From Candidatus Woesearchaeota archaeon (GTDB taxonomy: Archaea > Nanobdellota > Nanobdellia > Woesearchaeales > GW2011-AR4), in the NCBI GenBank assembly GCA_016185915.1, contig JACPMP010000059.1, positions 1 through 32,356 on the forward strand: DNA of 32,356 bases, written 5' to 3'. The position numbers and the translations under genes were made by a program. The stretch's first letter is position 1; the number at the start of each line of letters is the position of its first letter. This document shows, piece by piece, positions 3,308 through 27,796 of this stretch. Below the pieces are notes generated by a model. That model was not told the origin of the DNA. It saw nothing but the letters and a program-made list of their open reading frames with translations, and did not search any database.

Positions 3308-4633
3308 TTATCCTACACAAAGACGCTGTCCAATCAAGGTTGCCACAGCGCCATTTAAAATATTTTGTTGAGTTCTTGGTTTATAATATCTCATATCAGT
3401 ATAACCATTTGTAGAATTCCACAAATAGTTTTCTACAGCTGCAGCAACTGCCTCCAATAGTGTAACATTGGTACTTGAACCACCATTCATGCGATGATTA
3501 AAGTTTATGCCTGGAAAAACTGTGTTTCGCCTTTGGCCTTCTAATCGAAAAAAGAGATGCCCTAGTTCATGTTGTTTAGTCATTGAATCAGATAGTATCG
3601 GGAAATAAATAATTGCTCCACTAGTGTAATATCTTCTTGTTGGTGTCCTAGAATCTTGAGGACGAACATGACCAGATATACCACCCCGAACTACATAAAC
3701 AGCATTTTGAATAAAAGAACCATCAGTTGGTATGTCATCGCTTTGGATGTATTCAAACAAGCGATGGAAAGTGCCTGAGTTATTTTCCCAATGCCTGCCA
3801 GCTTCTGCTATGTCGCTTATATTAGCAGCATATATCCTTATTGGGCGAGCTTCAGGAGTCAAAAATCCTCCCAAAACTGTGCTTCCTTTTGGATTGTTGT
3901 CTGGGTTTCTATTTGGGTCATCACCATTTGTGCCTGTCATATACTTAAACCATTTCAATAAATCAAGTGGCTGGCCAGTTTGAGGGTCTATATTTAGTGA
4001 ATCACTACGTTGTCTAATTAGCTGGACGTTTTTAACATTCATCCCTTCTCCTAAATTAACAGGTTGTTGAAAAGGATAAAATCCAGGGTCAAAGTTGCCA
4101 GGCGGCTCTGTCCTGCCTGTAATAAATTCAGGCGCGCCAAATAAATAATTTCCAGACGCAATTTGATTTATTGGAGCAATACTTTGGTCACAGAGATTGA
4201 CATGAAAGCTATAACCCTGATTACTCTGAGGGTCTATTACAAAATATCCTGATGGATCAGTAACTCCTATGTGAATATCAAACTCACTTGGATTTTGAGC
4301 GCTGCTTCCTTGGCGGAATACTACAACTATATGTTCCAGTCCGGTATTCCCATCAGAAGCGCTAAGCGCCCTGCCTTGGAGTGTATTTCTAGTTTGTCGC
4401 GAGTAAAGTAATTTCTCAATGCCATCGTTTGTTTGTGCTTTCTCTATGCCTCCGTCTATAAGAGAATATTGCCTAACAGTTTGTGATTCTGGAAGATACA
4501 ATGGCGGCCCTTCAGATCCATGTGCTTTTGCACGTTTAGAACCCCCTATAATTGGTATGGAACCGACAGTAATAGCCGCGCCTGCTCTTCTTAATAATTC
4601 TCTTCTAGTTAAAAGTCTTTCATCTATGCCCAT
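3308..4633 (-). CDS. Tat-signal secreted protein with HExxH zinc-metalloprotease-like motif
   Basis: N-terminus LLTRRELLRRAGAAITVGS is a twin-arginine signal. HELGHLFF lies near the C-terminus. Long uninterrupted ORF. Confidence 0.65.
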   Translation of the reverse strand: MGIDERLLTRRELLRRAGAAITVGSIPIIGGSKRAKAHGSEGPPLYLPESQTVRQYSLIDGGIEKAQTNDGIEKLLYSRQTRNTLQGRALSASDGNTGLEHIVVVFRQGSSAQNPSEFDIHIGVTDPSGYFVIDPQSNQGYSFHVNLCDQSIAPINQIASGNYLFGAPEFITGRTEPPGNFDPGFYPFQQPVNLGEGMNVKNVQLIRQRSDSLNIDPQTGQPLDLLKWFKYMTGTNGDDPNRNPDNNPKGSTVLGGFLTPEARPIRIYAANISDIAEAGRHWENNSGTFHRLFEYIQSDDIPTDGSFIQNAVYVVRGGISGHVRPQDSRTPTRRYYTSGAIIYFPILSDSMTKQHELGHLFFRLEGQRRNTVFPGINFNHRMNGGSSTNVTLLEAVAAAVENYLWNSTNGYTDMRYYKPRTQQNILNGAVATLIGQRLCVG

Positions 4634-4733: not shown

Positions 4734-5030
4734 TTAAAATACCTCTTTTAAGGATGCATAACCCTCTAAATATTCCTCATAGCTTATAGGTGATTTTATA
4801 CCCAAATCAGCCAAAAGTTCTATTGTTTCTGTTATCGTTAAATTTAATTCTTTTGATGCCCTTCCTATGCTCATTTTTCCTTCTTTATAGTTCTTTAGAA
4901 TAAAATAAATCCAGCCATAATCTATTAGTTTTCTAGCTGCATATGACTTATCCTCATTTTCTTTCTTAGATAGTTCTTTTATAAAGTCTAGCTCTCTTTC
5001 TTTTAATCTTAAAGTTATAATCTTTGCCAT
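4734..5030 (-). CDS. antitoxin-like protein (RHH-like N-terminus plus UPF0175-like C-terminal HTH)
   Basis: The ATG at 5030 is preceded by GAAGGTGA and lies 1 nt after the PIN gene stop. MSIGRASKELNLTITETIELLADLGI resembles UPF0175. The track start at 5045 is a TTG. Confidence 0.6.
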   Translation of the reverse strand: MAKIITLRLKERELDFIKELSKKENEDKSYAARKLIDYGWIYFILKNYKEGKMSIGRASKELNLTITETIELLADLGIKSPISYEEYLEGYASLKEVF

Positions 5031-5031
5031 T

Positions 5032-5529
5032 TTATTCACCTTCAATTTTGTTTTTTGCGTCCTTTATTATATCGTAACTATACCTGCCATATTTCTCTAG
5101 TGCTTTTAGTTTCTCAAATGCAATTTCTTTGTCCAATAATCTATTTTCATAAAGGCGTATCAAAAAGTGTATTGAAGTTGCAAATTTTATATCCAAAATT
5201 TTGCATGCTTTTATACATGGTCCGTCATCAGTAGCGAATAATGCATTTTTTTCCTTAGCTAGCACTAAACCGTCTGCTTCCCCTATTTCTATACCAAAGT
5301 CTTGAATTAACTTAGTAACTTCTGGGTTATTTACTTTTAATACTTGAATTTTATTCTCAGTAATTAATCTATTTATTAATTTTGAATCAAAACTATCTTT
5401 TTTCTTTGTTGTTTCTTCTTTGACATTTTCTGAAAAGATAATTCTGAATTTTTCAGTCAATGCACCCAATAAATGTATCTTGGCTAATAATATCGCTGTT
5501 GAACTATCAAAAACTATTTCTTTCCTCAT
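5032..5529 (-). CDS. PIN-like nuclease domain protein (DUF3368-like), putative toxin
   Basis: VFDSSTAILLAKIHLL...GEADGLVLAKE...FATDDGPCIKACK matches the acidic-residue pattern of the PIN/DUF3368 proteins that usually partner UPF0175. Tightly coupled to 4734-5030. Confidence 0.55.
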   Translation of the reverse strand: MRKEIVFDSSTAILLAKIHLLGALTEKFRIIFSENVKEETTKKKDSFDSKLINRLITENKIQVLKVNNPEVTKLIQDFGIEIGEADGLVLAKEKNALFATDDGPCIKACKILDIKFATSIHFLIRLYENRLLDKEIAFEKLKALEKYGRYSYDIIKDAKNKIEGE

Positions 5530-5629
5530 GTATTACTTTATAATACAATCGTATTATTTAAACTTTTCTGTTCTCCACTACTTCACAAGCATTATGTATC
5601 TTAAAAATGTTTTTTTAATTTTCTATATT

Positions 5630-6691
5630 TCAGGATTCTGCCCAATAAACAGTCAAATCAGTTCCTGCATCGACAGGGTCTGGAGTAATACGCATATTGC
5701 TTATTTGGGGTAGCGCATTCACTTGCACAGTAGCTGTTGCTCTTGGTGAAGAGCATGCTCCAGTATTTTGGCAAGCTTCTCCTCGGATGTTATAAGTGCC
5801 AGTAGGTGATGTAGCTGGAATTGTGAAAGATACTCCTTGTGAACAAGTGCCTGTTGGACCTAAAATCCAGCTGGTTGATCCTGGAGATTGGTATTCAAAA
5901 CCGCAAACATCAGCATTAGCATAGCCAATAAAATTAATTGCTACTAGTTGTCCGATTATCGCTGGATTTGGACTGGCAGAAATTCTTTGCAAGGTGGGAG
6001 CTGATCCCAGACGAGGAGATGACCTGCTGTTGCATTGTCCATTCAAACAACCATATTGACAGTTTTGCGCAACAATTGTACCTCCACTGCAATACAAATG
6101 AGTATTACCTTCACATCCACTAAAATCATTAGCATAGCACTCTCCTCTATAAACACACTCTGTGCTTGAGGAACAACAAGCTGTTGTTCCATCATAATTG
6201 CTTTTACTTAATTTTTCTCCTACACATTTACCAGTGCAAGGACTGATGGCACCGGTATCCCTACAGCCGCATGATTCAGCGCTATATTTTGTTGGCGGCG
6301 GTGAGCCGATAGAGCAACTTCCCGTGCATTTATCAATTATACCACAAGAATTACATGTATTGCAATTGCAAGGATTTGCAGCATAAACACATGTAGGAAC
6401 ACAAGAGCCTCCACTACAAACGCCTGGACCACTGCCTGTAGAGCATGCTGCGCCATTATTATAAACAGTGTAACACGAACCACAATCATAGCATGAGAAG
6501 CATGTGACAGTTGTCCACCAGCAATGCCCTTCTTTATCACAATCCAATCCGCCGCAATTATAGAAATTACAGCAAGTCGCTGAATCACATTGTGTCCAAC
6601 TGCACTGGGCAAAGGATGTCTCACTTTTATATACAAAACTATATAACAAGAACACTAAAATCAATATGATGAATTTAGAGCGCAATTTCAT
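5630..6691 (-). CDS. secreted Cys-rich surface protein with C-terminal Ig-like domain (paralog of the 14745-15635 N-terminal module), apparently ending inside a second Ig-like domain
   Basis: Signal peptide MKLRSKFIILILVFLLYSFV. Cys-rich N-terminal half. Domain APTLQRISASPNPAIIGQ...NADVCGFEY aligns with the domains at 14745-15635 and 14539-14763. Confidence 0.75.
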   Translation of the reverse strand: MKLRSKFIILILVFLLYSFVYKSETSFAQCSWTQCDSATCCNFYNCGGLDCDKEGHCWWTTVTCFSCYDCGSCYTVYNNGAACSTGSGPGVCSGGSCVPTCVYAANPCNCNTCNSCGIIDKCTGSCSIGSPPPTKYSAESCGCRDTGAISPCTGKCVGEKLSKSNYDGTTACCSSSTECVYRGECYANDFSGCEGNTHLYCSGGTIVAQNCQYGCLNGQCNSRSSPRLGSAPTLQRISASPNPAIIGQLVAINFIGYANADVCGFEYQSPGSTSWILGPTGTCSQGVSFTIPATSPTGTYNIRGEACQNTGACSSPRATATVQVNALPQISNMRITPDPVDAGTDLTVYWAES

Positions 6692-7617
6692 GAAAATTCA
6701 CCCTTTAGGAAAATTAAATTATTTTCTTTCTCAGAACCTTCGCTTGAATATATTGTATTTCCAATTTCATCTACAAGGAAAAGCTTGTGTGTAATTTTTG
6801 TTTCACCTGGCTGAATTCGAAACATTTTTTGTCCATTTGGACCTGTTGCTTCATTCAATGGTGGAGCTCCTGTTAGCTTCATAACTGGTGCGCCCGAACC
6901 CTGATTAGCAGAAGATGTTCTGATTATTCCTGACCTAAAATCAAGAAGACTATCTGCATTCTTTGTATAGGTTGAATTTAATTTTATCAAAACTTCATAT
7001 ACATTATTCAACTGACAGTTTGAGCAAGTATCAACAGTGCAATCATATGAAATTTGCCTATTCACCTTGTTAATATCTGGATTTGCGTCTTTACCGTTTG
7101 TTGTATCATATACTATCTTGCCATTTTTTGAAAACTTATTTTTTATTTCATTCAACGGTGTTGGAATAATCTTCTTATCTTCCACAACAATAATTGCATC
7201 ATCAGCCTTTATCTTTTGATTGCATACCTCTACAAAGCCCAAATCAACCTCTGCTCTCAGCACTTCCTTTCCATCATAAACAACAGAGCCATAATTTTTT
7301 ATTTTATAATTTGCATATTTTTCATTAAGTGCCTTGTTTATTATGCTCAACTGCTTTTCTGAAGTAAGCTGTTCCCCTGCCGCTCCTCTTTTTTTGCTTA
7401 CATTCTGTATTATCAAGAAAAATAAAATTAAAAGAATAACAATGGAAACTATAACTAATGGTTTGTATTGGTAATTTCTTATGCCAGATTCTTTTGCAGC
7501 CTCTTCTATCCTCTTGGCAGAATGGCCTTTTTCCAGTAATTTTTTTTTGAGAATATCAAATGGCACACCCTTTTTTCTACCTAGCTTAAGATATTCAACT
7601 ATTCTTCTGTCTGCCAT
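6688..7617 (-). CDS. single-pass membrane protein: N-terminal cytoplasmic helical module, TM helix, ~235-aa extracellular domain
   Basis: Overlaps the downstream gene start by 4 nt. N-terminal RRIVEYLKLGRKKGVPFDILKKKLLEKGHSAKRIEEA is followed by the TM helix LVIVSIVILLILFFLII. Confidence 0.65.
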   Translation of the reverse strand: MADRRIVEYLKLGRKKGVPFDILKKKLLEKGHSAKRIEEAAKESGIRNYQYKPLVIVSIVILLILFFLIIQNVSKKRGAAGEQLTSEKQLSIINKALNEKYANYKIKNYGSVVYDGKEVLRAEVDLGFVEVCNQKIKADDAIIVVEDKKIIPTPLNEIKNKFSKNGKIVYDTTNGKDANPDINKVNRQISYDCTVDTCSNCQLNNVYEVLIKLNSTYTKNADSLLDFRSGIIRTSSANQGSGAPVMKLTGAPPLNEATGPNGQKMFRIQPGETKITHKLFLVDEIGNTIYSSEGSEKENNLIFLKGEFS

Positions 7618-7802
7618 TTATACCTCTTTTTTGAAATTAGGACGTAGGAATACATAAAAACTCTCCGAAGCTGAATTAATCTTCTTGCTCCAAACGAACA
7701 TTAGCATAGCCCTTCCTATGGGCACTTACCTGCCACGCAAATGAAACATCTCTGCCATCAATTGATTTGACAACACAAGTAAATTGCCTCATTTTGTTGT
7801 AT

Positions 7803-8924
7803 TTATTGAATACTTACTAAAACAAGCACTTGCCCATTTTCTCCAACAGGTGTTAAGACTTTTCCTACAATTTTACCTTCACAATTACCTAAACATGACT
7901 TGGCTTTGCCATTATAAGAGCTTATTAACAAATCTCCTGGCTTAACATTTCCTTCTACATTTACCGGCACTCTTCCTGAAATTGCAAGTTTTATTGAGTT
8001 ATCTCCTTCATATTCATTGCCTATAATCATGTGAGGTTTTGTGCTAACAATACCTATAGCAAGATTACTATTGCTATCGCATTTTTTAACAACACCGCCA
8101 TTTTGTATAGTGCTTTTTTCTGCATCTATGCATACAACATCGCCTGCTTCTGGTTTAATTCCAGAAAATTTGACCCATTCTGCAATATCAATTGCACCTC
8201 CTGTTCTTGTTGTAGCAAATGAGTTGCCAACTACGTTTAGGTCACCACTTACCCATAAATTTTTTCGTGCCCAAGTTTGTCCGCTTCCTTCACCAACATT
8301 GACATCACCCATCAATACAATTGTTCTGCTTTGAGCCCCTGGCAAAGCACTATTCTCAGTCCAGCCAATTACATTTCCTGCATTAGCTTGATCAATTCCC
8401 GGCAACCCATTTGTCTCTCCTTCGACATTTGAATCCATTATCCATTTATGATTCGCAGCATCCCATCCTGCTAAAGTAAGTCTATTGCCTGATACGTAAA
8501 AGTTCGCTTGAGGACTAGCGCCTATTCCATAAATCCCAACAGTGCTGTAAGATGGAACAGCAAATCCTATTTGTCCTGAAGTTGAATCCCAGCCAACACC
8601 ATAAAATGTTACACCGCCTCCAACTGCAGCAGCATCTCGTAAAGCCCTCTGCCTTTCCCCTAAGCCCATGAATACATATGGAGGTTGAGATGTAGAAGGG
8701 GATTGGATATACATGTTTCCGTTAGCCACAATTGCGCTGTTCGATGCAATTGGACCATTAACGCTTAATAATGGACCAGTCGTACTACCGCATGTATTGC
8801 TCAAAGTTACTTTTCCTGGAAATGTGTAATCACAAGAACCAAAACTGCATGCAGTCTGAGCATATGCCCCTACCATCAAAATCAAAGAAAAAACAACTCC
8901 GCATAAAAATATTTTATTTTTCAT
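7803..8924 (-). CDS. secreted protein, unknown function (Gly-rich beta-rich body plus a C-terminal small barrel-like domain)
   Basis: Signal peptide [23 protein letters not shown]. The C-terminus DIAEWVKF...GDVVCID...[14 protein letters not shown]...[19 protein letters not shown]...GKIVGKVL is a pattern I recall from bacterial and phage fibre-like surface proteins. I cannot name the family. Confidence 0.65.
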
Positions 8925-9023
8925 TTTATACCTCTTTTTGTTTAAGATACAGTCTTATTTTTATTACTTTAATTAACTCATATTTAATCTTTATTGTTTT
9001 TTCTGATGTTTATCTGTTTTTGT

Positions 9024-9428
9024 TCAGTTCATAAACACAAACCCATTCCTCTTAGAAATTCTGTTAGAGCCTTTTGTGATATTTCCTGTAACATTTGACA
9101 AAAATTTTATGTATTCGTAGCCCGAGTAATTTACCGCAAGTTCCCTGTTATCAGTTATGTTTATGCTGTAACTAATGCCATTAACAGTCTGAGGCATGGT
9201 AAAATTTCTTGTGTAGCCGTCATTAACCGATTTTGCAATTTCTATTTCACGGTAAGCAAATTCTGCTATGTCTTGAGCAATTTTTTTACTGCCTTCTTCT
9301 CTGGCTTCCAGCATTTTAGAACTAGTTACTGCAAAAAAACCAACTACAACTAAAAGCATAAATGATGCTAAAAAAATAAACTCAACAGCAGACTGTGATT
9401 TTAATTTATATTTCTTAGTTTTAAACAT
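9024..9428 (-). CDS. archaeal type IV pilin-like protein (class III signal peptide)
   Basis: The internal ATG gives MFKTKKYKLKSQSAVEFIFLASFMLLVVVGFFAV, a basic leader plus Q-x-x-x-E-F hydrophobic segment. Confidence 0.6.
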   Translation of the reverse strand: MFKTKKYKLKSQSAVEFIFLASFMLLVVVGFFAVTSSKMLEAREEGSKKIAQDIAEFAYREIEIAKSVNDGYTRNFTMPQTVNGISYSINITDNRELAVNYSGYEYIKFLSNVTGNITKGSNRISKRNGFVFMN

Positions 9429-20261: not shown

Positions 20262-20360
20262 TTATTTGTTCCCTTTCTTAAATATATCTTCAACCTTTTT
20301 CCAGTTGACAACATTCCACCAATTCTTTAAGTAATCGGCTCGTCTGTTTTGGTACCCCAT
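20262..20360 (-). pseudogene. orphan 3' end of an Fe/Mn superoxide dismutase gene (last ~30 codons)
   Basis: The minus strand translates to (M)GYQNRRADYLKNWWNVVNWKKVEDIFKKGNK*, the canonical SOD C-terminus YQNRRPDY..WNVVNW. It aligns with [27 protein letters not shown] of the intact gene at 23129-23737. Confidence 0.6.
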
Positions 20361-20361
20361 T

Positions 20362-20817
20362 TTAGTAGGTCTCTCTAAATTTTCTACTTATGTTCAGTTC
20401 TCTAACTTCAAGCCACCAGGATGGTATCTTTAAATCTAATTTTTCGAGCAATTGATTTAGGTGATTTATTCTGAAAAATCTCTTAATATTTTTCCCAGAG
20501 ATACAAACAAATACTGGTTTGTTATGTTTTAAGGCTAAATCTATTTCTGAAATAGCCCCTAAAGTAAAAGTTGTATCTATTTCTAATGGCAATGGTAAGA
20601 TATACAATAATGCGTCTGATTCTTTAACAATATCAAAACATTCATTCATTAGTTTATTCCCATTATTATTTTGATTAATTTCTGTAAAAGGATTAAAGAA
20701 TAAATGGTTTTTGTACTTAGAATTAGTTGAGATTAATTTACTTTTTGCCGATTTAATTCTATTTCTTTCTTTGCCCTTTAAAATTAAAGGCATTGCAACA
20801 TAAATTTTCTTTTTCAT
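20362..20817 (-). CDS. nucleoside 2-deoxyribosyltransferase-like (flavodoxin-like fold) protein
   Basis: KIYVAMP at the N-terminus, then ...IVKESDALLYILP...TLGAISEIDLALKHNKPVFV. This matches the NDT-family layout of an N-terminal strand-Gly/Pro, a D-containing strand and E-x-G-x-A..KPV. 4-nt overlap with the upstream gene. Confidence 0.45.
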   Translation of the reverse strand: MKKKIYVAMPLILKGKERNRIKSAKSKLISTNSKYKNHLFFNPFTEINQNNNGNKLMNECFDIVKESDALLYILPLPLEIDTTFTLGAISEIDLALKHNKPVFVCISGKNIKRFFRINHLNQLLEKLDLKIPSWWLEVRELNISRKFRETY

Positions 20818-21236
20818 CCTAGTTTATTCTCTATCCACAATTTTCTTTCTTCTGGTGATAATGTTTCTAAAAACCGCTCGGAATAAATACCTTTAAGAGT
20901 GGACTCGTCACTTTTCCAATATCTATACTCAACTTTATCATTATTCTTATACCTCTCTGCTAGCTCAAATTTTCTGGAATCGTCAACATCATATAGACAT
21001 AAAACATAATCTTCCCCTTTCTTATGTTCATCCGTATTAATTTTAGCATGAAAGAATCCGTCTTTTTCTAACTCTTCAATTGCTATTTTATTTAATTCAT
21101 CTTTGTATTCAGAAAAAAATAAATATTTGCCAGTTATTTTAGGCTCTTTTTTAGAAATTTTTATGTAGTAATGCCAGTATTCATCATCTACTCTAATAAC
21201 ATTTTTTGATACCCTTTTTGGTTTTTGCATAATCAC
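20814..21236 (-). CDS. DUF1917-like (Bles03 / phosphothreonine-lyase-like fold) protein
   Basis: GKYLFFSEYKDELNKIAIEELEKDGFFHAKINT...EDYVLCLYDVDDSRKFELAERY...YRYWKSDESTLKGIY matches my recollection of the DUF1917 pattern (GKW.IF...AKVST...VICVYT.D...YK.D..T..G.Y). Confidence 0.45.
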   Translation of the reverse strand: MIMQKPKRVSKNVIRVDDEYWHYYIKISKKEPKITGKYLFFSEYKDELNKIAIEELEKDGFFHAKINTDEHKKGEDYVLCLYDVDDSRKFELAERYKNNDKVEYRYWKSDESTLKGIYSERFLETLSPEERKLWIENKLG

Positions 21237-21298
21237 TCAATTAACTTATATGTATTTGATTCTATTTTTTGCAAAAATTCTAAAAGTGCTTCTGTTTT

Positions 21299-21958
21299 TC
21301 ATTCATTTACTAACATTTTTTCAGTAATCAAGAAAGTATTTACTGCATCTGCTTCACAATACTCACGAAAAGCTTCTGGGTTTTCTTTCCACAATTTTTT
21401 AATAAGTTTTCCTTTATCAGGGTTGTTAGGAATATGTTCTTTTCCAGTCTTTAGTGGTAATCCTGAAAATGCACTATGTGTTATCAAATCTGATAAACTC
21501 CAAGGTTTGTACAAACCATTATTGTAACTCTTCATAAATATTGATGCAATAGTGGATGCCTCAATTGAAGGAGCATTTAAAAAATCCTTAATTTTCCAAT
21601 ATTGTTGAGATAATTTTTCTCCATTTTTAAAGTAGTCTTCAAATTTTTTCAATCTATAAGCAACTACAGGATGGTCATAGGTCATTGCAAAATAACCAAT
21701 TCTTACATACTTGTAACCTATACTTCGTAAAAGTATACCAAATTCTTTCATAATTTCAACTTCTGCAAGTTCTGTTTCCTCTTTCTTTATGAATGATTTG
21801 CAAACGAGTTTATTAGTCATATCACGATATGCCACCGTTATCGAAAGAAGTGGCTCTCCTTTCATCATGTCGCTAGTTTTGGGTACATCTGTTTCAATAT
21901 CCCAAGAGATTTTAGTTCCTGGCGTTAACCATATATGTTTTCCTTGGTCCAAATCCAT
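21299..21958 (-). CDS. stand-alone DEDD(y) 3'-5' exonuclease domain protein (family-B polymerase exonuclease-like)
   Basis: Exo I ISWDIETD, Exo II-like YFAMTYDHPVV, Exo III-like YCEADAVNT. At 219 aa it is too short to include a polymerase domain. Confidence 0.6.
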   Translation of the reverse strand: MDLDQGKHIWLTPGTKISWDIETDVPKTSDMMKGEPLLSITVAYRDMTNKLVCKSFIKKEETELAEVEIMKEFGILLRSIGYKYVRIGYFAMTYDHPVVAYRLKKFEDYFKNGEKLSQQYWKIKDFLNAPSIEASTIASIFMKSYNNGLYKPWSLSDLITHSAFSGLPLKTGKEHIPNNPDKGKLIKKLWKENPEAFREYCEADAVNTFLITEKMLVNE

Positions 21959-22047
21959 TTTTACCCCAATTTAGCTTTATTTTCTATACTTATTTGTTAA
22001 AAGATGAAAGTTATACTTATTTATATATCTCACGTCTCTTTGTCCAG

Positions 22048-22119
22048 TGTCCAGTGCTTTTTTACAATATAGAAAAAAATACTTTTAAGGTTTATAGATA
22101 AGCAAATTTGCACTGGACA
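22048..22119. promoter_or_regulatory. 10-bp inverted repeat (TGTCCAGTGC / GCACTGGACA) flanking an AT-rich, TATA-like 52-bp spacer in a divergent intergenic region; the left arm is part of a GTCCAGT x2 tandem
   Basis: Read directly at 22048-22057 and 22110-22119. It lies between the divergently oriented exonuclease and LAGLIDADG genes. Confidence 0.3.
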
Positions 22120-22161
22120 TCTCTGCCTAAAATATATAAAGGCATTCTACATCTGAAATTG

Positions 22162-22250
22162 AAAAAGAGAACACGCAAAACTGCCAAATTAAGCCTTTCT
22201 GTCTTCGACAAGAAAGCCTTTTACGCAGTTTCGCTTAACGTTCTCTTTTT
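22162..22250 (+). other. ~89-nt imperfect long hairpin in the putative leader of the LAGLIDADG gene
   Basis: An 11-bp perfect base (AAAAAGAGAAC 22162-22172 / GTTCTCTTTTT 22240-22250), internal paired blocks, and an apical stem CTTTCTGTC-TTC-GACA(A)GAAAG. A TATA-like AAATATATAAA lies ~25 nt upstream. Confidence 0.35.
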
Positions 22251-22300
22251 CCTTAATTCCAAAGTCTTTGGAAAACAAAAAACTTTGGAGGGTGATTAAA

Positions 22301-23128
22301 ATGAAAATAAGGATTAGGAAAAATCATGAATTAAGATTGAAAGCTTTTGATTTGATGAATGAACTTAAAAGTAATAATCTTACTCAAAAGGAGGTTATAG
22401 ATAAAATCTATGCAGAATTTGGTGTACCGAGAGGAACTTTGTATAGTTGGTATGCAAATAGAGATTATCCGTATGGGCGAAGAGGTAGAGAAGTTACTAA
22501 AAATCCTGAGTTATTCTATGTTTTAGGTGCCCTATTAGGAGATGGGTGTATTTATTACTGGAAGAAACTCAATAGGCATATTATAAACATTGCTGGTGAA
22601 AAAGAGTTTACAGAGAAATATGCAGACAAATTATCAAAATGCACCAGAAACAGAGTTAAAAACTATATAAACAGGAACAATAATGTTTGGTTTGTAAATA
22701 TTGGCAACCTTCAACTTTATTTTCTATTCCAACAAATAAGAGGAGACCTCAAAGTATTACGTAACCTTCTTGCAAAAGGAGATTACTACAAAAATTCTCT
22801 ACAGCTAATAGAAGGTTTTTTTGACGCTGAGGGTTGTATTAAGATTATAAAAGAAAAAGTGAGAAAAACTCCTAAAATATGCCCGGATATTTGCTGTACA
22901 AATTATGAAATTTTAGAATTGATAAGAAAACTTTTACAAGAGCATCTAAATATTGAAGCAAGATATTCAATTCAAAAAGCAGATGGTATCAAAAATAAGA
23001 AAGTTGCTTATCATTTAAGAATTTATAAAAAGGAATTTGTAAGAAAATTTTTTGAAAATATCAGTACAATAAAGTTAAAAAATGAAAAAATTGCTTATGT
23101 TGAAAATTGGTTAAACAATGGTTTATGA
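22301..23128 (+). CDS. free-standing double-motif LAGLIDADG homing endonuclease with N-terminal HTH region
   Basis: GGAGGGTGA lies 5 nt upstream of the ATG at 22301. Motifs LGALLGDGCIY and IEGFFDAEGCI are present. The N-terminal LTQKEVIDKIYAEFGVPRGTLYSWY is HTH-like. Confidence 0.8.
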   Translation: MKIRIRKNHELRLKAFDLMNELKSNNLTQKEVIDKIYAEFGVPRGTLYSWYANRDYPYGRRGREVTKNPELFYVLGALLGDGCIYYWKKLNRHIINIAGEKEFTEKYADKLSKCTRNRVKNYINRNNNVWFVNIGNLQLYFLFQQIRGDLKVLRNLLAKGDYYKNSLQLIEGFFDAEGCIKIIKEKVRKTPKICPDICCTNYEILELIRKLLQEHLNIEARYSIQKADGIKNKKVAYHLRIYKKEFVRKFFENISTIKLKNEKIAYVENWLNNGL

Positions 23129-23737
23129 TTATTTTTTCATTGCTTTTTTATAATATTCTTCTACTTGTGGCCAATTTACCACGTTCCACCAAGTTTTAAT
23201 ATATTCAACTCTAGCTGGACCCCACTTTTTATAGTACGCATGCTCCCACACATCAACACCCAAAATCGGAGTTTTCCCTTCCATCAATGGGCTGTCTTGA
23301 TTTGCAGTGCTGTAAACTTCTAATTTACCGTTGTTTAATACAAGCCACGCCCATCCTGAGCCAAACCTGTTCAAGCCAGCATTTGTAAACTCTTCCTTAA
23401 ATTTTTCAAAACCACCAAATGCCGATTTTATGGCATCTGCAACTTTGCCTTGTGGCTCACCTCCTGCATTTGGCGCCATTATCTGCCAGAAAAAAGAATG
23501 GTTTGAATGCCCTCCTCCATGGTTTCTTACAGCCGTTCTTATATTTTCAGGAACGTCATTTAATTTTTTAAGAACTTCATTGATGTCCATATCCTCAAAT
23601 TTTGTGCTTTTTACTGCACCGTTTAATTTATCAATATACGCTTGATGATGCTTTGTGTGATGTATGGTCATAGTCTGCTCATCAATGTACGGCTCAAGCG
23701 CATTGTATGCGTATGGCAATTTTGGTAATGTATGCAT
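23129..23737 (-). CDS. sod: Fe/Mn-family superoxide dismutase
   Basis: [34 protein letters not shown] and WNVVNW are all present. The ATG at 23737 is preceded by GGAGGCGG. The stop codon is directly adjacent (0 nt) to the convergent LAGLIDADG stop. Confidence 0.95.
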
Positions 23738-23858
23738 ATAAACCGCCTCCATTTAGTTATTAATATTTAAATTAACAATTGTTAAGAAGAATATTGGAGT
23801 AATATAAATAGTTTTTGATTGGATTTGAAAGTAATCTTAAACCCCAGATGAAAGCCCG

Positions 23859-25444: not shown

Positions 25445-26365
25445 TTATTTGAAAATTTGAAGAAATACTTTGTCCAATTCTTTATTTTTATCTCCCTTAA
25501 AATCACTATGAGGGATGCCTAAATTTTCCAATGCCTTTTTGAATCTTTTGTACCCCTCTTTGTCTCTAAGTTCGACCCATTCTACTTTTAAGCTGTTTAA
25601 CTGTTTCTTGTTTGTATCTGATAGTTTATCTGCAATGAATACAGAGCTATCCCTTGCTATAACAGCATCTGCACTTTCTGGATTCCCTTTCCCCATTAGT
25701 TTTACTTCGCAAAGATAATCTGTTCCCTTATTGGTTAAATAAAAGTCAATTTCTCTCTCAAATTCTTCTTCAGATTTTATTTGGCTTTTGACTTTTATTT
25801 TATAGTTTTTATCACTAACACCATACAATTTACATAATGTTAACATTAATGGTTTTTCCACTCTCTTACCAGCAGTGCTCCAAAGCCCGCCTCTGAGTGC
25901 GGCTCTTTTAACAGCTAAAGTATTTATGACTATTAGGCTTTCGCTAACATTCAAATCAACGCTAACTCCTTTGAATTTTAATGTAAGAATGACATTTAAC
26001 TCATCTTCTCCATCTACTAATGATTGAATTGTATTGTATAATTGTTCATAGTGTTCATTTGAAGCCTCGATAACTATCTCTTTTGTTGCAGAGTTATACA
26101 TATTTGATATCGTCTTCCGGTTTAAGCCTGAATTAATAGCGATTTCCTCAGCAGAAAGATTTTTGTTCAAGAATTCTTTTTTATACCAATCTACTGTGAT
26201 GTCTTTATTCTTCAGTTTTGCATCAATTATTTTTTTAAAGAAGTCAATTGTATATTGTAGAAACTCAGCATTAATTAGAGTAACTATCTCTATTCTATAA
26301 TCCTCTCCATTCATGAGCTTTTTTATTATGTTTTTTGCAACTTGTTCTGTTAATGTTATCGTCAT
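25445..26365 (-). CDS. candidate type II restriction endonuclease (PD-(D/E)xK-like), partner of the upstream methyltransferase
   Basis: ATGA start/stop overlap with the methyltransferase gene. D-x(n)-E-V-K in GTDYLCEVKLMGKG. I recognise no other family signature. Confidence 0.45.
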   Translation of the reverse strand: MTITLTEQVAKNIIKKLMNGEDYRIEIVTLINAEFLQYTIDFFKKIIDAKLKNKDITVDWYKKEFLNKNLSAEEIAINSGLNRKTISNMYNSATKEIVIEASNEHYEQLYNTIQSLVDGEDELNVILTLKFKGVSVDLNVSESLIVINTLAVKRAALRGGLWSTAGKRVEKPLMLTLCKLYGVSDKNYKIKVKSQIKSEEEFEREIDFYLTNKGTDYLCEVKLMGKGNPESADAVIARDSSVFIADKLSDTNKKQLNSLKVEWVELRDKEGYKRFKKALENLGIPHSDFKGDKNKELDKVFLQIFK

Positions 26366-27726
26366 TTTGCTACTCTTCCAAATTCATTTAAGCTTAAGAA
26401 TTTTAGTGAAAACTGGTTATTTGAAAAAATCTTTGTTTGGATCAGATTTTCTTTAATCCTTTCAAAATATTTCTTCTCTTTTTCAGCCAAAAAGAAAAAT
26501 CTATCTAAGTTTATAGCGGATTCACCGAATGTTCCGCTACCAGCAAAAGGGTCGAATACTAAATCTCTCTTAAATGAATAAAATTTAATTACCTTGTTAC
26601 AAAGTTCTAAAGGGAAAACGGCACTGTGCGTTTTATCAAAAGTAGTGTCTATTTTCCAGACATTTGAAGATTCAAAATCTCCATTAATTTTACTTTCTTC
26701 CACTATTTTTTTGTCATATTGTTTAATATTCCAATCGATTAATTTATCCGTTTTCTTTCTATAAACCATCACGCATTCAGTACAAGGATTAGGTTTATAT
26801 CCTAATGGTTTTCTATGTTGTAAAAAACCCGCGTTCCTATTTTTTGCACTTGCCTCCGGTTTTTCCCAGATTATATCATCAATAAATTCCCAGCCCATAT
26901 TCATTAGGATAGGGTGTATATCATATGGGATGGGATATCTTTTACTAGAATATTGTCTTCCAACACGTGGGATTATTATTGGTGAAGTATTCAATAAAAA
27001 AAATCTTCCTTCTTTGGTTACTCTGTGAACTTCTTTAAAAACTTCTTTAAGAAAATTTAAATATTCTCGATAACTTGAATAGATGGAGTAATCTCTTGCG
27101 TTGTAATAAGGTGGCGAAGTAAAAGTTAAATGGACTGACTCATTTGGAACGGATTTTAGTATATCTCTAACATCTCCATAAACAACAACGTTTTTCATAT
27201 AATCTGGAGATTTAGCATGGTTTGGGTCATAACCATTACTAGAACTTGAATGAAATTCTTTTTTTATTACTTCTTGTATTATCTCATTTGGATGATTTCC
27301 CAATTTTTTTAATTTTTCTTGAACAGTTTTATCTTCCCTAAAAACTAGCAATCCCCTCATAGCTTGCAAAACAACTTCTGGGTCCGAATCACTCAAATAC
27401 TTAAATAAAAGCTGTTTGTTTGAACTATTTCTTAACCTGCCTATTCCAGAAACCGCTTCTCGTCTTACGCTCGAACTGTTATCATTTTCTACAACATTTA
27501 CAAAAACATTAATTAAAGTAGAATTACCTATTTTTGCTAAATTTTTTACAGCTAGACTTCTTACTTTTTCATTTTCGTGTTTAAGAAGACCCATTAAAGG
27601 TTTAGTATCAAAATTCTCGTTTAATCTTCCAAGTTTACCAAGTAATCTTATTATAGCTCCAATATTGTTCTGCCTAATAAGTTCTTGTATCTTTTCAGGC
27701 TCTTTTTTTAATAATTCTGCTTCCAT
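26362..27726 (-). CDS. beta-class N4-cytosine/N6-adenine DNA methyltransferase with an N-terminal HEAT-repeat domain
   Basis: Motif IV TSPPY (VHLTFTSPPYYNARDY) precedes motif I DPFAGSGT. The N-terminal ~150 aa hold three or more PBS-lyase/HEAT-like repeats (ENEKVRSLAVKNLAKIG, SSVRREAVSGIGRL, SDPEVVLQAMRGL). The ATG at 27726 is preferred to the TTG at 27753. Confidence 0.8.
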   Translation of the reverse strand: MEAELLKKEPEKIQELIRQNNIGAIIRLLGKLGRLNENFDTKPLMGLLKHENEKVRSLAVKNLAKIGNSTLINVFVNVVENDNSSSVRREAVSGIGRLRNSSNKQLLFKYLSDSDPEVVLQAMRGLLVFREDKTVQEKLKKLGNHPNEIIQEVIKKEFHSSSSNGYDPNHAKSPDYMKNVVVYGDVRDILKSVPNESVHLTFTSPPYYNARDYSIYSSYREYLNFLKEVFKEVHRVTKEGRFFLLNTSPIIIPRVGRQYSSKRYPIPYDIHPILMNMGWEFIDDIIWEKPEASAKNRNAGFLQHRKPLGYKPNPCTECVMVYRKKTDKLIDWNIKQYDKKIVEESKINGDFESSNVWKIDTTFDKTHSAVFPLELCNKVIKFYSFKRDLVFDPFAGSGTFGESAINLDRFFFLAEKEKKYFERIKENLIQTKIFSNNQFSLKFLSLNEFGRVAK

Positions 27727-27796
27727 CTTTCCCCATAAGTATATAAAGCTCAATTTAATAAGTTTTCCGTTTCGTACGCCCCTCCCAAATAAATTA

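Follow-up and report, generated by a model that had tools for sequence, protein, structure and literature searches.

The described systems closest to the locus reported here share single features with it. TOTE (TPR, OB, TBP, Effector) is a proposed conflict system that often includes RNase H-fold domains, and passages of the preprint describing this credit the name to Aravind et al. 2022 (bioRxiv 10.1101/2025.09.15.676423). In retron Ec86, a domain resembling nucleoside deoxyribosyltransferases (NDTs) is an anti-phage effector (bioRxiv 10.1101/2023.08.16.553469). BLES03, the phosphothreonine lyases and eIF4E share one common fold (PMC4159009). Here we describe a three-gene operon in a 32,356-nucleotide stretch of DNA, hereafter the window, from a Candidatus Woesearchaeota archaeon (contig JACPMP010000059.1 of assembly GCA_016185915.1). 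Its genes encode a putative stand-alone exonuclease (gene 1), a small protein with a predicted eIF4E/Bles03 fold (gene 2) and a divergent NDT-like protein (gene 3). We compare this trio with the systems above, trace it to a homing cassette and weigh what its function may be. An earlier annotation, made from the letters of the window and their open reading frames (ORFs), is referred to as the sequence-only reading.

A cargo operon at the 3′ end of sod

The operon consists of three co-directional minus-strand ORFs spanning positions 20362-21958 (Table 1). Genes 2 and 3 share a 4-nt overlap, ATGA, at 20814-20817, and the three genes form one compact operon, as the sequence-only reading had described. 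The 62-nt gap that it reported after gene 1 holds if gene 2 starts at GTG 21236 (ORF 20814-21236, 140 amino acids). The start seen in the gene 2 homologues is ATG 21230, two codons 3′ of this GTG, and places the gap at 68 nt. The region that separates the operon from a divergently oriented LAGLIDADG gene is presumed to be the promoter region of both units: A/T-rich, TATA-like stretches lie 5′ of ATG 21958, and the motif GGGGT is located 5 nt ahead of the start codon. A scan for sigma-70 promoters and terminators yielded nothing informative, in keeping with an archaeal genome.

The far side of the operon abuts a fragment of the superoxide dismutase gene (sod). This remnant begins 4 nt past the stop codon of gene 3 and translates into a SOD C-terminus of the 'YQNRRADYL' type. 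The intact sod gene lies 2.8 kb away and, unlike the remnant, encodes a C-terminus of the 'KKWGPAR' allelic type. Two SOD C-terminus alleles, 'YYKK[FW]GPAR..EYI' and 'YYL.Y....DYL', are found in the genus, irrespective of the presence of a LAGLIDADG gene (loci L046-L059). That the intact gene and the remnant belong to different allelic types is consistent with co-conversion during homing. The uninterrupted site is preserved in at least ten genomes of the same genus, where a PP-loop gene, sod, a spacer of 0.4-1.3 kb, a Zn-ribbon gene and a 228-residue ORF follow each other and the trio is found in none.

A LAGLIDADG gene is located at the sod 3′ end in 5 of the 43 genus genomes, with varying cargo; homologues of the LAGLIDADG protein of the window occupy this position in four other genus genomes. 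In genome G403, the LAGLIDADG gene and a sod remnant are present at the site without any cargo, and in genome G018 an ORF of 214 residues with two predicted transmembrane segments occupies the cargo position. Genome G001 carries a 261-residue TIR-domain protein (TIR_2, E 7e-21) in the slot and orientation of the trio, again abutting a sod remnant. The same G001 locus contains nested remnants, namely two sod 3′ fragments and a C-terminal LAGLIDADG fragment, which point to repeated invasion of the site.

Relatives with empty sites, the displaced end of sod and the TIR gene in the same slot of a sister genome together identify the trio as cargo of a LAGLIDADG homing cassette of ~2.9 kb, which invaded the sod 3′ end of this genome. 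This agrees with the sequence-only reading, which had placed the trio in a mobile-looking cassette beside a homing endonuclease; the latter is recognized by the LAGLIDADG_3 profile. We reject the idea that the gene order stems from misassembly, since the sod remnant and the parallel cassettes in three other genomes speak for a genuine insertion. As in free-standing homing endonuclease cassettes with co-conversion, the LAGLIDADG gene abuts a rebuilt target gene, the original 3′ end is displaced and relatives have empty sites. In contrast to such cassettes, the type seen in the window carries variable, multi-gene cargo of a conflict type (the trio here, the TIR protein in G001).

The three genes are also accessory, because they are rare or absent across the genus, family and order genomes searched. 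Gene 1 was found in none of 24 other same-genus genomes, and the gene 3 family in none of 69 other genomes of the family. Among 400 other genomes of the order, the gene 2 family is present in two and the gene 3 family likewise in two, both of the latter being weak fragment matches.

Two further observations concern the surroundings of the cassette. Among same-genus loci, sod and the Zn-ribbon gene are ~0.4 to 1.3 kb apart, and the stretch that separates them may hold further small cargo or remnants. A restriction-modification pair, which the sequence-only reading had correctly noted nearby, occupies positions 25445-27753 of the window: the gene for a CfrBI-family restriction endonuclease overlaps that for a DNA methyltransferase, which bears HEAT repeats at its N-terminus. 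This pair adjoins a PP-loop tRNA-thiolation gene and represents a second accessory insertion near the cassette.

Table 1 Coordinates of the cargo operon, the cassette and related loci
Feature	Position	Strand	Length	Description
Gene 1	21299..21958	-	219 aa	Putative stand-alone PolB-type DEDDy 3′-5′ exonuclease
Gene 2	20814..21230	-	138 aa from ATG 21230	Predicted eIF4E / phosphothreonine-lyase / Bles03 fold
Gene 3	20362..20817	-	151 aa	Divergent NDT-superfamily (SLOG-like) N-glycosidase/transferase-like protein (putative)
Displaced original sod 3′ end	20262..20357	-	31 codons + stop	Far border of the ~2.9 kb cassette
Divergent intergenic region	21959..22267	.		Between cargo operon and LAGLIDADG gene; presumed promoters
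LAGLIDADG homing endonuclease gene	22268..23128	+		LAGLIDADG_3 E 2.2e-9; convergent with sod, abuts sod stop codon
Intact sod, replaced 3′ end	23129..23752	-		Pfam Sod_Fe_N + Sod_Fe_C
G001 cassette	L060 (G001:C8:62000-71300) 6190-9174			TIR-domain gene 6688-7473, minus strand
Bathyarchaeia/Methanomethylicaceae three-gene module	L006, L008, L009, L011, L015, L020, L022, ~4850-6500 each			L014, L024 partial

A stand-alone exonuclease

Gene 1 matches the Pfam family DNA_pol_B_exo2 (PF10108) with an E-value of 1.9e-4 and 21.6 bits, so it remains below the cut-off of 24 bits. This was the single family match obtained for the three proteins from Pfam, NCBIfam, PADLOC and PHROGs. In a word-index search of 5.8 billion clusters it retrieves itself alone. 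A HMMER scan of 1.84 billion representatives, which left out the 'longer' length class, returned 36 remote relatives of 116-299 residues, the nearest being 32-35% identical. In an alignment of 32 sequences (gene 1 and 31 relatives), the acidic residues of all three exonuclease motifs are invariant: Asp20 and Glu22 in Exo I, Asp95 in Exo II and Asp204 in Exo III. Tyr200 of Exo III is nearly invariant. The family as a whole is linked to known exonuclease domains, with 22 of the 32 sequences matching DNA_pol_B_exo1 (PF03104; best E 3.2e-11) and 11 matching DNA_pol_B_exo2.

No polymerase domain is present in the 219-residue gene 1 product or in its 36 relatives. The alignment of the catalytic residues and the size of the relatives (all ≤299 residues) bear out the earlier description of an exonuclease that has Exo I, II and III motifs and lacks a polymerase domain. 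Gene 1 looks like a stand-alone DEDDy PolB-type 3′-5′ exonuclease that would be catalytically competent. It shares with stand-alone PolB-like exonucleases (PF10108/PF03104) the Exo I DxE, Exo II YD and Exo III Yx3D motifs and a size of ~220 residues; it differs from them in falling under the Pfam cut-off and in the low identity to its nearest relative.

A small protein with a predicted eIF4E/Bles03 fold

Gene 2 belongs to a family of 330 members at E<=1e-3, which extends over DPANN, Bathyarchaeia, Methanomethylicia, Asgard archaea and several bacterial phyla. No Pfam domain was found in 46 members examined. The profile of Bles03/DUF1917 (PF08939) matches neither gene 2 nor these 46 proteins at E<=0.1, and a six-frame search of this genome and four others with PF08939 left the gene 2 family undetected even at E<=1. 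A comparison of the gene 2 sequence profile with the PDB returned nothing significant.

The AlphaFold2 (AF2) model of gene 2, with a predicted local distance difference test score (pLDDT) of 84.8 and a predicted template modelling score (pTM) of 0.76, points to a particular fold class. Its best structural match is the C-terminal domain of HopA1 (Z 9.0-9.1, 117-118 residues aligned). Further matches are LxmY and the lyase domains of class III lanthipeptide synthesis (Z 7-8.1), eIF4E (Z 7-7.6; Foldseek E ~2e-3) and the SpvC/OspF phosphothreonine lyases (Z 5.9-6.9). In a viral structure library, the matches include eIF4E proteins of giant viruses and a giant-virus DUF1917 protein, the latter with the highest TM-score in that library (TMq 0.48, E 0.077). 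Solved BLES03 chains are absent from the best 50 structural matches of the model. In the ESM Atlas, the clusters nearest to gene 2 include one in which 22% of the members are Bles03 proteins. The Z values lie just slightly above the level of common arrangements; we assign the fold because one fold class recurs across the matches, not because of the height of the scores.

The label 'DUF1917-like', which the sequence-only reading had given to the middle protein, is by these models correct for the fold, given the HopA1, lyase, eIF4E and SpvC matches and the Bles03 cluster, and incorrect for Pfam membership. The predicted fold agrees throughout with those of Bles03/DUF1917, the lyases and eIF4E (Z 5.9-9.1). 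In contrast to Bles03/DUF1917, gene 2 is much smaller (138 residues) and has no sequence match to PF08939. A literature search on DUF1917 returned nothing directly relevant.

The invariant residues of the family are Trp19, Gly34-Lys35-Tyr36, Lys63, Cys78, Tyr80, Lys87 and Tyr102-Arg103-Tyr104-Trp105-Lys106. The conserved residues sit on strands, which fits a sheet face that binds a ligand or a phosphate group, and they could correspond to the lyase or cap-binding sites of the related folds. In our alignment, the spacing of the strand lysines and tyrosines seems to resemble the K/K/Y/K set reported for BLES03 (PMC4159009). The OspF/SpvC lyases use a catalytic lysine base, a histidine acid, a Lys/Tyr pair and an arginine-rich phosphate pocket; the invariant residues of gene 2 to be set beside these are Lys35, Lys63, Tyr80, Lys87, Arg103 and Lys106. 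Another difference from the Bles03 and lyase families is genomic: the gene 2 family is accompanied by nucleases and helicases instead of kinases or lanthipeptide genes. To our knowledge, a prokaryotic role of the eIF4E/Bles03/phosphothreonine-lyase fold is established only in lanthipeptide synthesis and in type III effectors.

A divergent NDT-like protein

Gene 3 has just nine relatives among 5.8 billion clusters, all metagenomic and 52-73% identical. Searches of Pfam and NCBIfam gave no family match, including none to PF05014 at E<=1, and a six-frame search of this genome with PF05014 left gene 3 undetected; Pfam LDcluster4 matches weakly (E 0.31). To place the protein, its alignment was compared by hhalign with 12 PF05014-type proteins from the genomes of relatives, 6 of the 12 being under Pfam's own cut-off. 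The two align over 78 columns with 95.1% probability (E 2.9e-8), and the invariant Glu91 of gene 3 (in T-L-G-A-x-S-E) falls on the catalytic glutamate of the S-L-G-V-G-Y-E motif. A hidden Markov model (HMM) built from the 12 proteins matches the gene 3 homologue at locus L003 with an E-value of 4.3e-6. Against the PDB, the gene 3 profile finds the LOG-like protein 6y01 over residues 75-108, covering the Glu91 motif, at E 0.013. Finally, the nearest named clusters in the ESM Atlas are Nuc_deoxyrib_tr families, most of them viral.

The hhalign match and the position of Glu91 are in line with the earlier description of the last protein as NDT-like, and we file gene 3 as a putative divergent branch of the NDT superfamily that has kept the nucleophile. 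Its N-terminal Y-V-A-M-P resembles the Y-x-A-G-P of the superfamily (PF05014; DNPH1/Rcl; retron Ec86 effector), and its size is similar. In contrast to the superfamily at large, the gene 3 family escapes PF05014 and has just ~10 members. Unlike in retron Ec86, no reverse transcriptase or non-coding RNA is seen among the annotated neighbours of the trio in the window.

Recurrence of the components in other genomes

We next considered 33 genome loci that encode a gene 2 relative. Nine loci, which all belong to Bathyarchaeia or Methanomethylicaceae, have an overlapping 148-residue HNH-like gene with the signature CxxC...H...CxxCH...H upstream of the gene 2 relative. Seven of the nine also hold a divergent DEDD exonuclease of the RNase_H_2 type (Table 1), which relates to the gene 1 family with 95% hhalign probability. 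The outer flanks of this module vary by locus (an HD protein, an SMC-like ATPase and others), which suggests that the module moves as a unit. At a further locus from Bathyarchaeia (L025), two exonuclease genes, one of them homologous to gene 1 (30% identity), point in the same direction as a gene 2 homologue.

The association extends to bacteria in other forms. At one Myxococcota locus, a 1026-residue fusion protein (L027:3262-6342, plus strand) joins a helicase of the DEAD/SF2/Lhr type to DNA_pol_A_exo1 (residues 716-874) and, at residues 911-1024, to a domain that shares 48% identity with gene 2. In five loci from Dehalococcoidia (L012, L013, L018, L028, L036), the gene 2 relative directly follows a protein of ~820 residues (for example L018:3418-6417) that combines an archaeo-eukaryotic primase (AEP) of the TOTE type with a superfamily 2 (SF2) helicase. 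In a Blastocatellia genome (L007:5264-9030), it is flanked by ruvA, whose end it overlaps, and by ruvB; the ruvB gene contains an intein with a LAGLIDADG domain. The gene 2 family is thus linked repeatedly to nucleases and helicases, and is once fused to them. The likeness to TOTE runs through these Dehalococcoidia relatives alone: no AEP, TPR, OB or TBP domain is present among the window ORFs scanned. Gene 2 itself was considered as the TBP component of such a system and rejected, the fold searches having returned no TBP match. A literature search on TOTE with AEP found nothing directly relevant.

For gene 3, a single homologue locus could be read (L003:234-2048; 57% identity). An HNH gene follows directly and a ParB gene lies beyond it; the HNH protein relates to that of the Bathyarchaeia module with 93.7% hhalign probability. 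In one Bathyarchaeia module (L015), a canonical-looking NDT-like gene of 143 residues (3919-4350, plus strand; local HMM E 9.6e-10) is located 0.5 kb from the cluster of exonuclease, HNH and gene 2, which brings all three enzyme types within 2.6 kb. This gene was rejected as an orthologue of gene 3. The 148-residue neighbour in Bathyarchaeia, which is HNH-like, and a 175-residue neighbour at L025 were likewise rejected as gene 3 relatives, both being unrelated. Lastly, two Logan proteins, one 77% identical to gene 2 and the other 58% identical to gene 3, are both recorded as coming from a contig of exactly 2360 bp. This is circumstantial evidence that they share a contig, and it is the one hint of a pairing of genes 2 and 3 elsewhere.

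Possible functions of the operon

We give about an even chance to the reading that the operon is an accessory conflict module directed at nucleic acids and nucleotides, whether in defence or in counter-defence. In such a module, the DEDDy exonuclease encoded by gene 1 would be the effector, digesting DNA, or perhaps RNA, starting at 3′ ends. The gene 2 protein would be its partner, binding a nucleic-acid end or a nucleotide-like ligand via the conserved Lys/Arg/Tyr/Trp sheet face; it might then target or gate the nuclease, or carry out a lyase-type step. Gene 3 would use its conserved glutamate to cleave off or swap the base of nucleosides or nucleotides, whether these are freed by the exonuclease or come from the pool. 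We infer that the three proteins work together. The sequence-only reading had likewise proposed a nucleotide-centred defence or anti-defence module. What stands of that proposal is the mobile cargo, its accessory nature and the ties of the gene 2 family to nucleases, helicases and AEP; what speaks against it is that the trio is unseen elsewhere. Its statement that the trio fits no named defence system holds, PADLOC being empty for all three genes. No component matches PADLOC or cultured-phage records; if the trio is a defence system, it is an undescribed one.

Several results weigh against a conflict module. The sequence-only reading had looked to a neighbourhood survey for co-occurrence of the trio in other genomes; the exact trio was not found in any other genome or locus examined, and its parts recur in other combinations. 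The gene 3 homologue at L003 is accompanied by neither gene 1 nor gene 2. Because the Bathyarchaeia loci are kin, there are fewer independent associations than the count of loci suggests. Related exonucleases occur in 22 Bathyarchaeia genomes, most of which lack a gene 2 homologue within 1.5 kb of them; the pairing of exonuclease and gene 2 is therefore facultative. Many loci of the gene 2 family lie in unrelated contexts (methylmalonyl-CoA mutase, a major facilitator superfamily transporter, a GTPase). The databases of defence and phage proteins are equally silent: genes 1-3 have no match in PADLOC-DB 2.0 at E<=1, none in PHROGs at a meaningful E-value and none in 50,697 phage records. A scan of viral contigs recovered two gene 2 relatives and no gene 3 relative. 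No close homologue of gene 1 was found among ~15 billion proteins. The structural evidence for gene 3 is also poor: its AF2 model has a pLDDT of 56, Foldseek found nothing for it at E<=0.1, and VIA-align placed NDT chains at Z <= 4.9, intermixed with other Rossmannoid folds.

The main rival is nucleotide salvage, which we consider unlikely though worth serious attention. The exonuclease would turn scavenged or damaged DNA into deoxynucleoside monophosphates, and the NDT-like enzyme would keep the pool balanced or clean by swapping or removing bases. Such a function would be of use to an archaeon of reduced genome (1.14 Mb here) and would resemble the recycling of host DNA by viruses. Classical NDTs are salvage enzymes, and gene 3 keeps the catalytic glutamate. 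Genes of the PF05014 type are scattered among relatives (22 of 61 genomes at E<=1, 6 of them above the cut-off), and the NDT families nearest to gene 3 in the ESM Atlas are mostly viral. However, the gene 3 family is missing from all 69 family genomes and is represented in the 400 order genomes by those two weak fragments, the sister copy of the homing cassette carries a TIR protein, and the recurring partners of gene 2 are HNH nucleases, helicases and AEP rather than metabolic genes.

The location of the trio raises two other explanations. It is distinctly improbable, in our estimate, that the operon is no functional unit at all, and that three unrelated accessory genes were gathered in a recombination hotspot and are merely co-transcribed. 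The uniqueness of the exact trio would agree with this, as would the very unequal family sizes (36 remote relatives, >330 and 9), the presence of gene 3 without gene 2 at L003 and the nested sod and LAGLIDADG remnants left in G001 by repeated invasions of the site. Set against these are the tight packing with the ATGA overlap, the linkage of exonucleases to the gene 2 family, which arose independently in different forms, fusion included, and, circumstantially, the possibly shared Logan contig. Support of homing itself is the least probable of the explanations considered: the exonuclease and its partner would process the double-strand break that the LAGLIDADG enzyme introduces, promoting gene conversion and sod co-conversion and thereby aiding the spread of the cassette. 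The trio does lie physically within the cassette, the sod 3′ end is co-converted, and relatives of genes 2 and 3 repeatedly adjoin HNH-type endonucleases, one gene 2 relative even residing in the ruvAB operon whose ruvB intein has a LAGLIDADG domain. Yet LAGLIDADG cassettes function at this site in the absence of the trio, as in G403, which has no cargo, and G001, where a TIR gene takes its place, and an NDT-like enzyme has no evident use in break repair.

Implications

A broader extension of the conflict-module reading remains rather doubtful to us. It would have the gene 2 family as a widespread, undescribed end- or nucleotide-sensing or lyase partner of DEDD exonucleases, HNH nucleases, SF2 helicases and AEP, the trio as a new defence system, and LAGLIDADG cassettes at sod as shuttles of interchangeable defence cargo among DPANN archaea. 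Gene 3, as a putative new branch of the NDT superfamily with ~10 members and the catalytic glutamate kept, adds to the candidate nucleotide-targeting effectors. A gene 2 family of more than 330 members that lacks a Pfam entry and is coupled to 3′-5′ exonucleases, HNH nucleases and primase-helicases makes a nucleic-acid-directed role for its predicted fold testable. The mobile-element biology of DPANN archaea is poorly known. The interchangeable cargo at one site, a TIR protein in one genome and the trio in another, points to homing endonucleases as a possible means by which immunity genes spread in these archaea.

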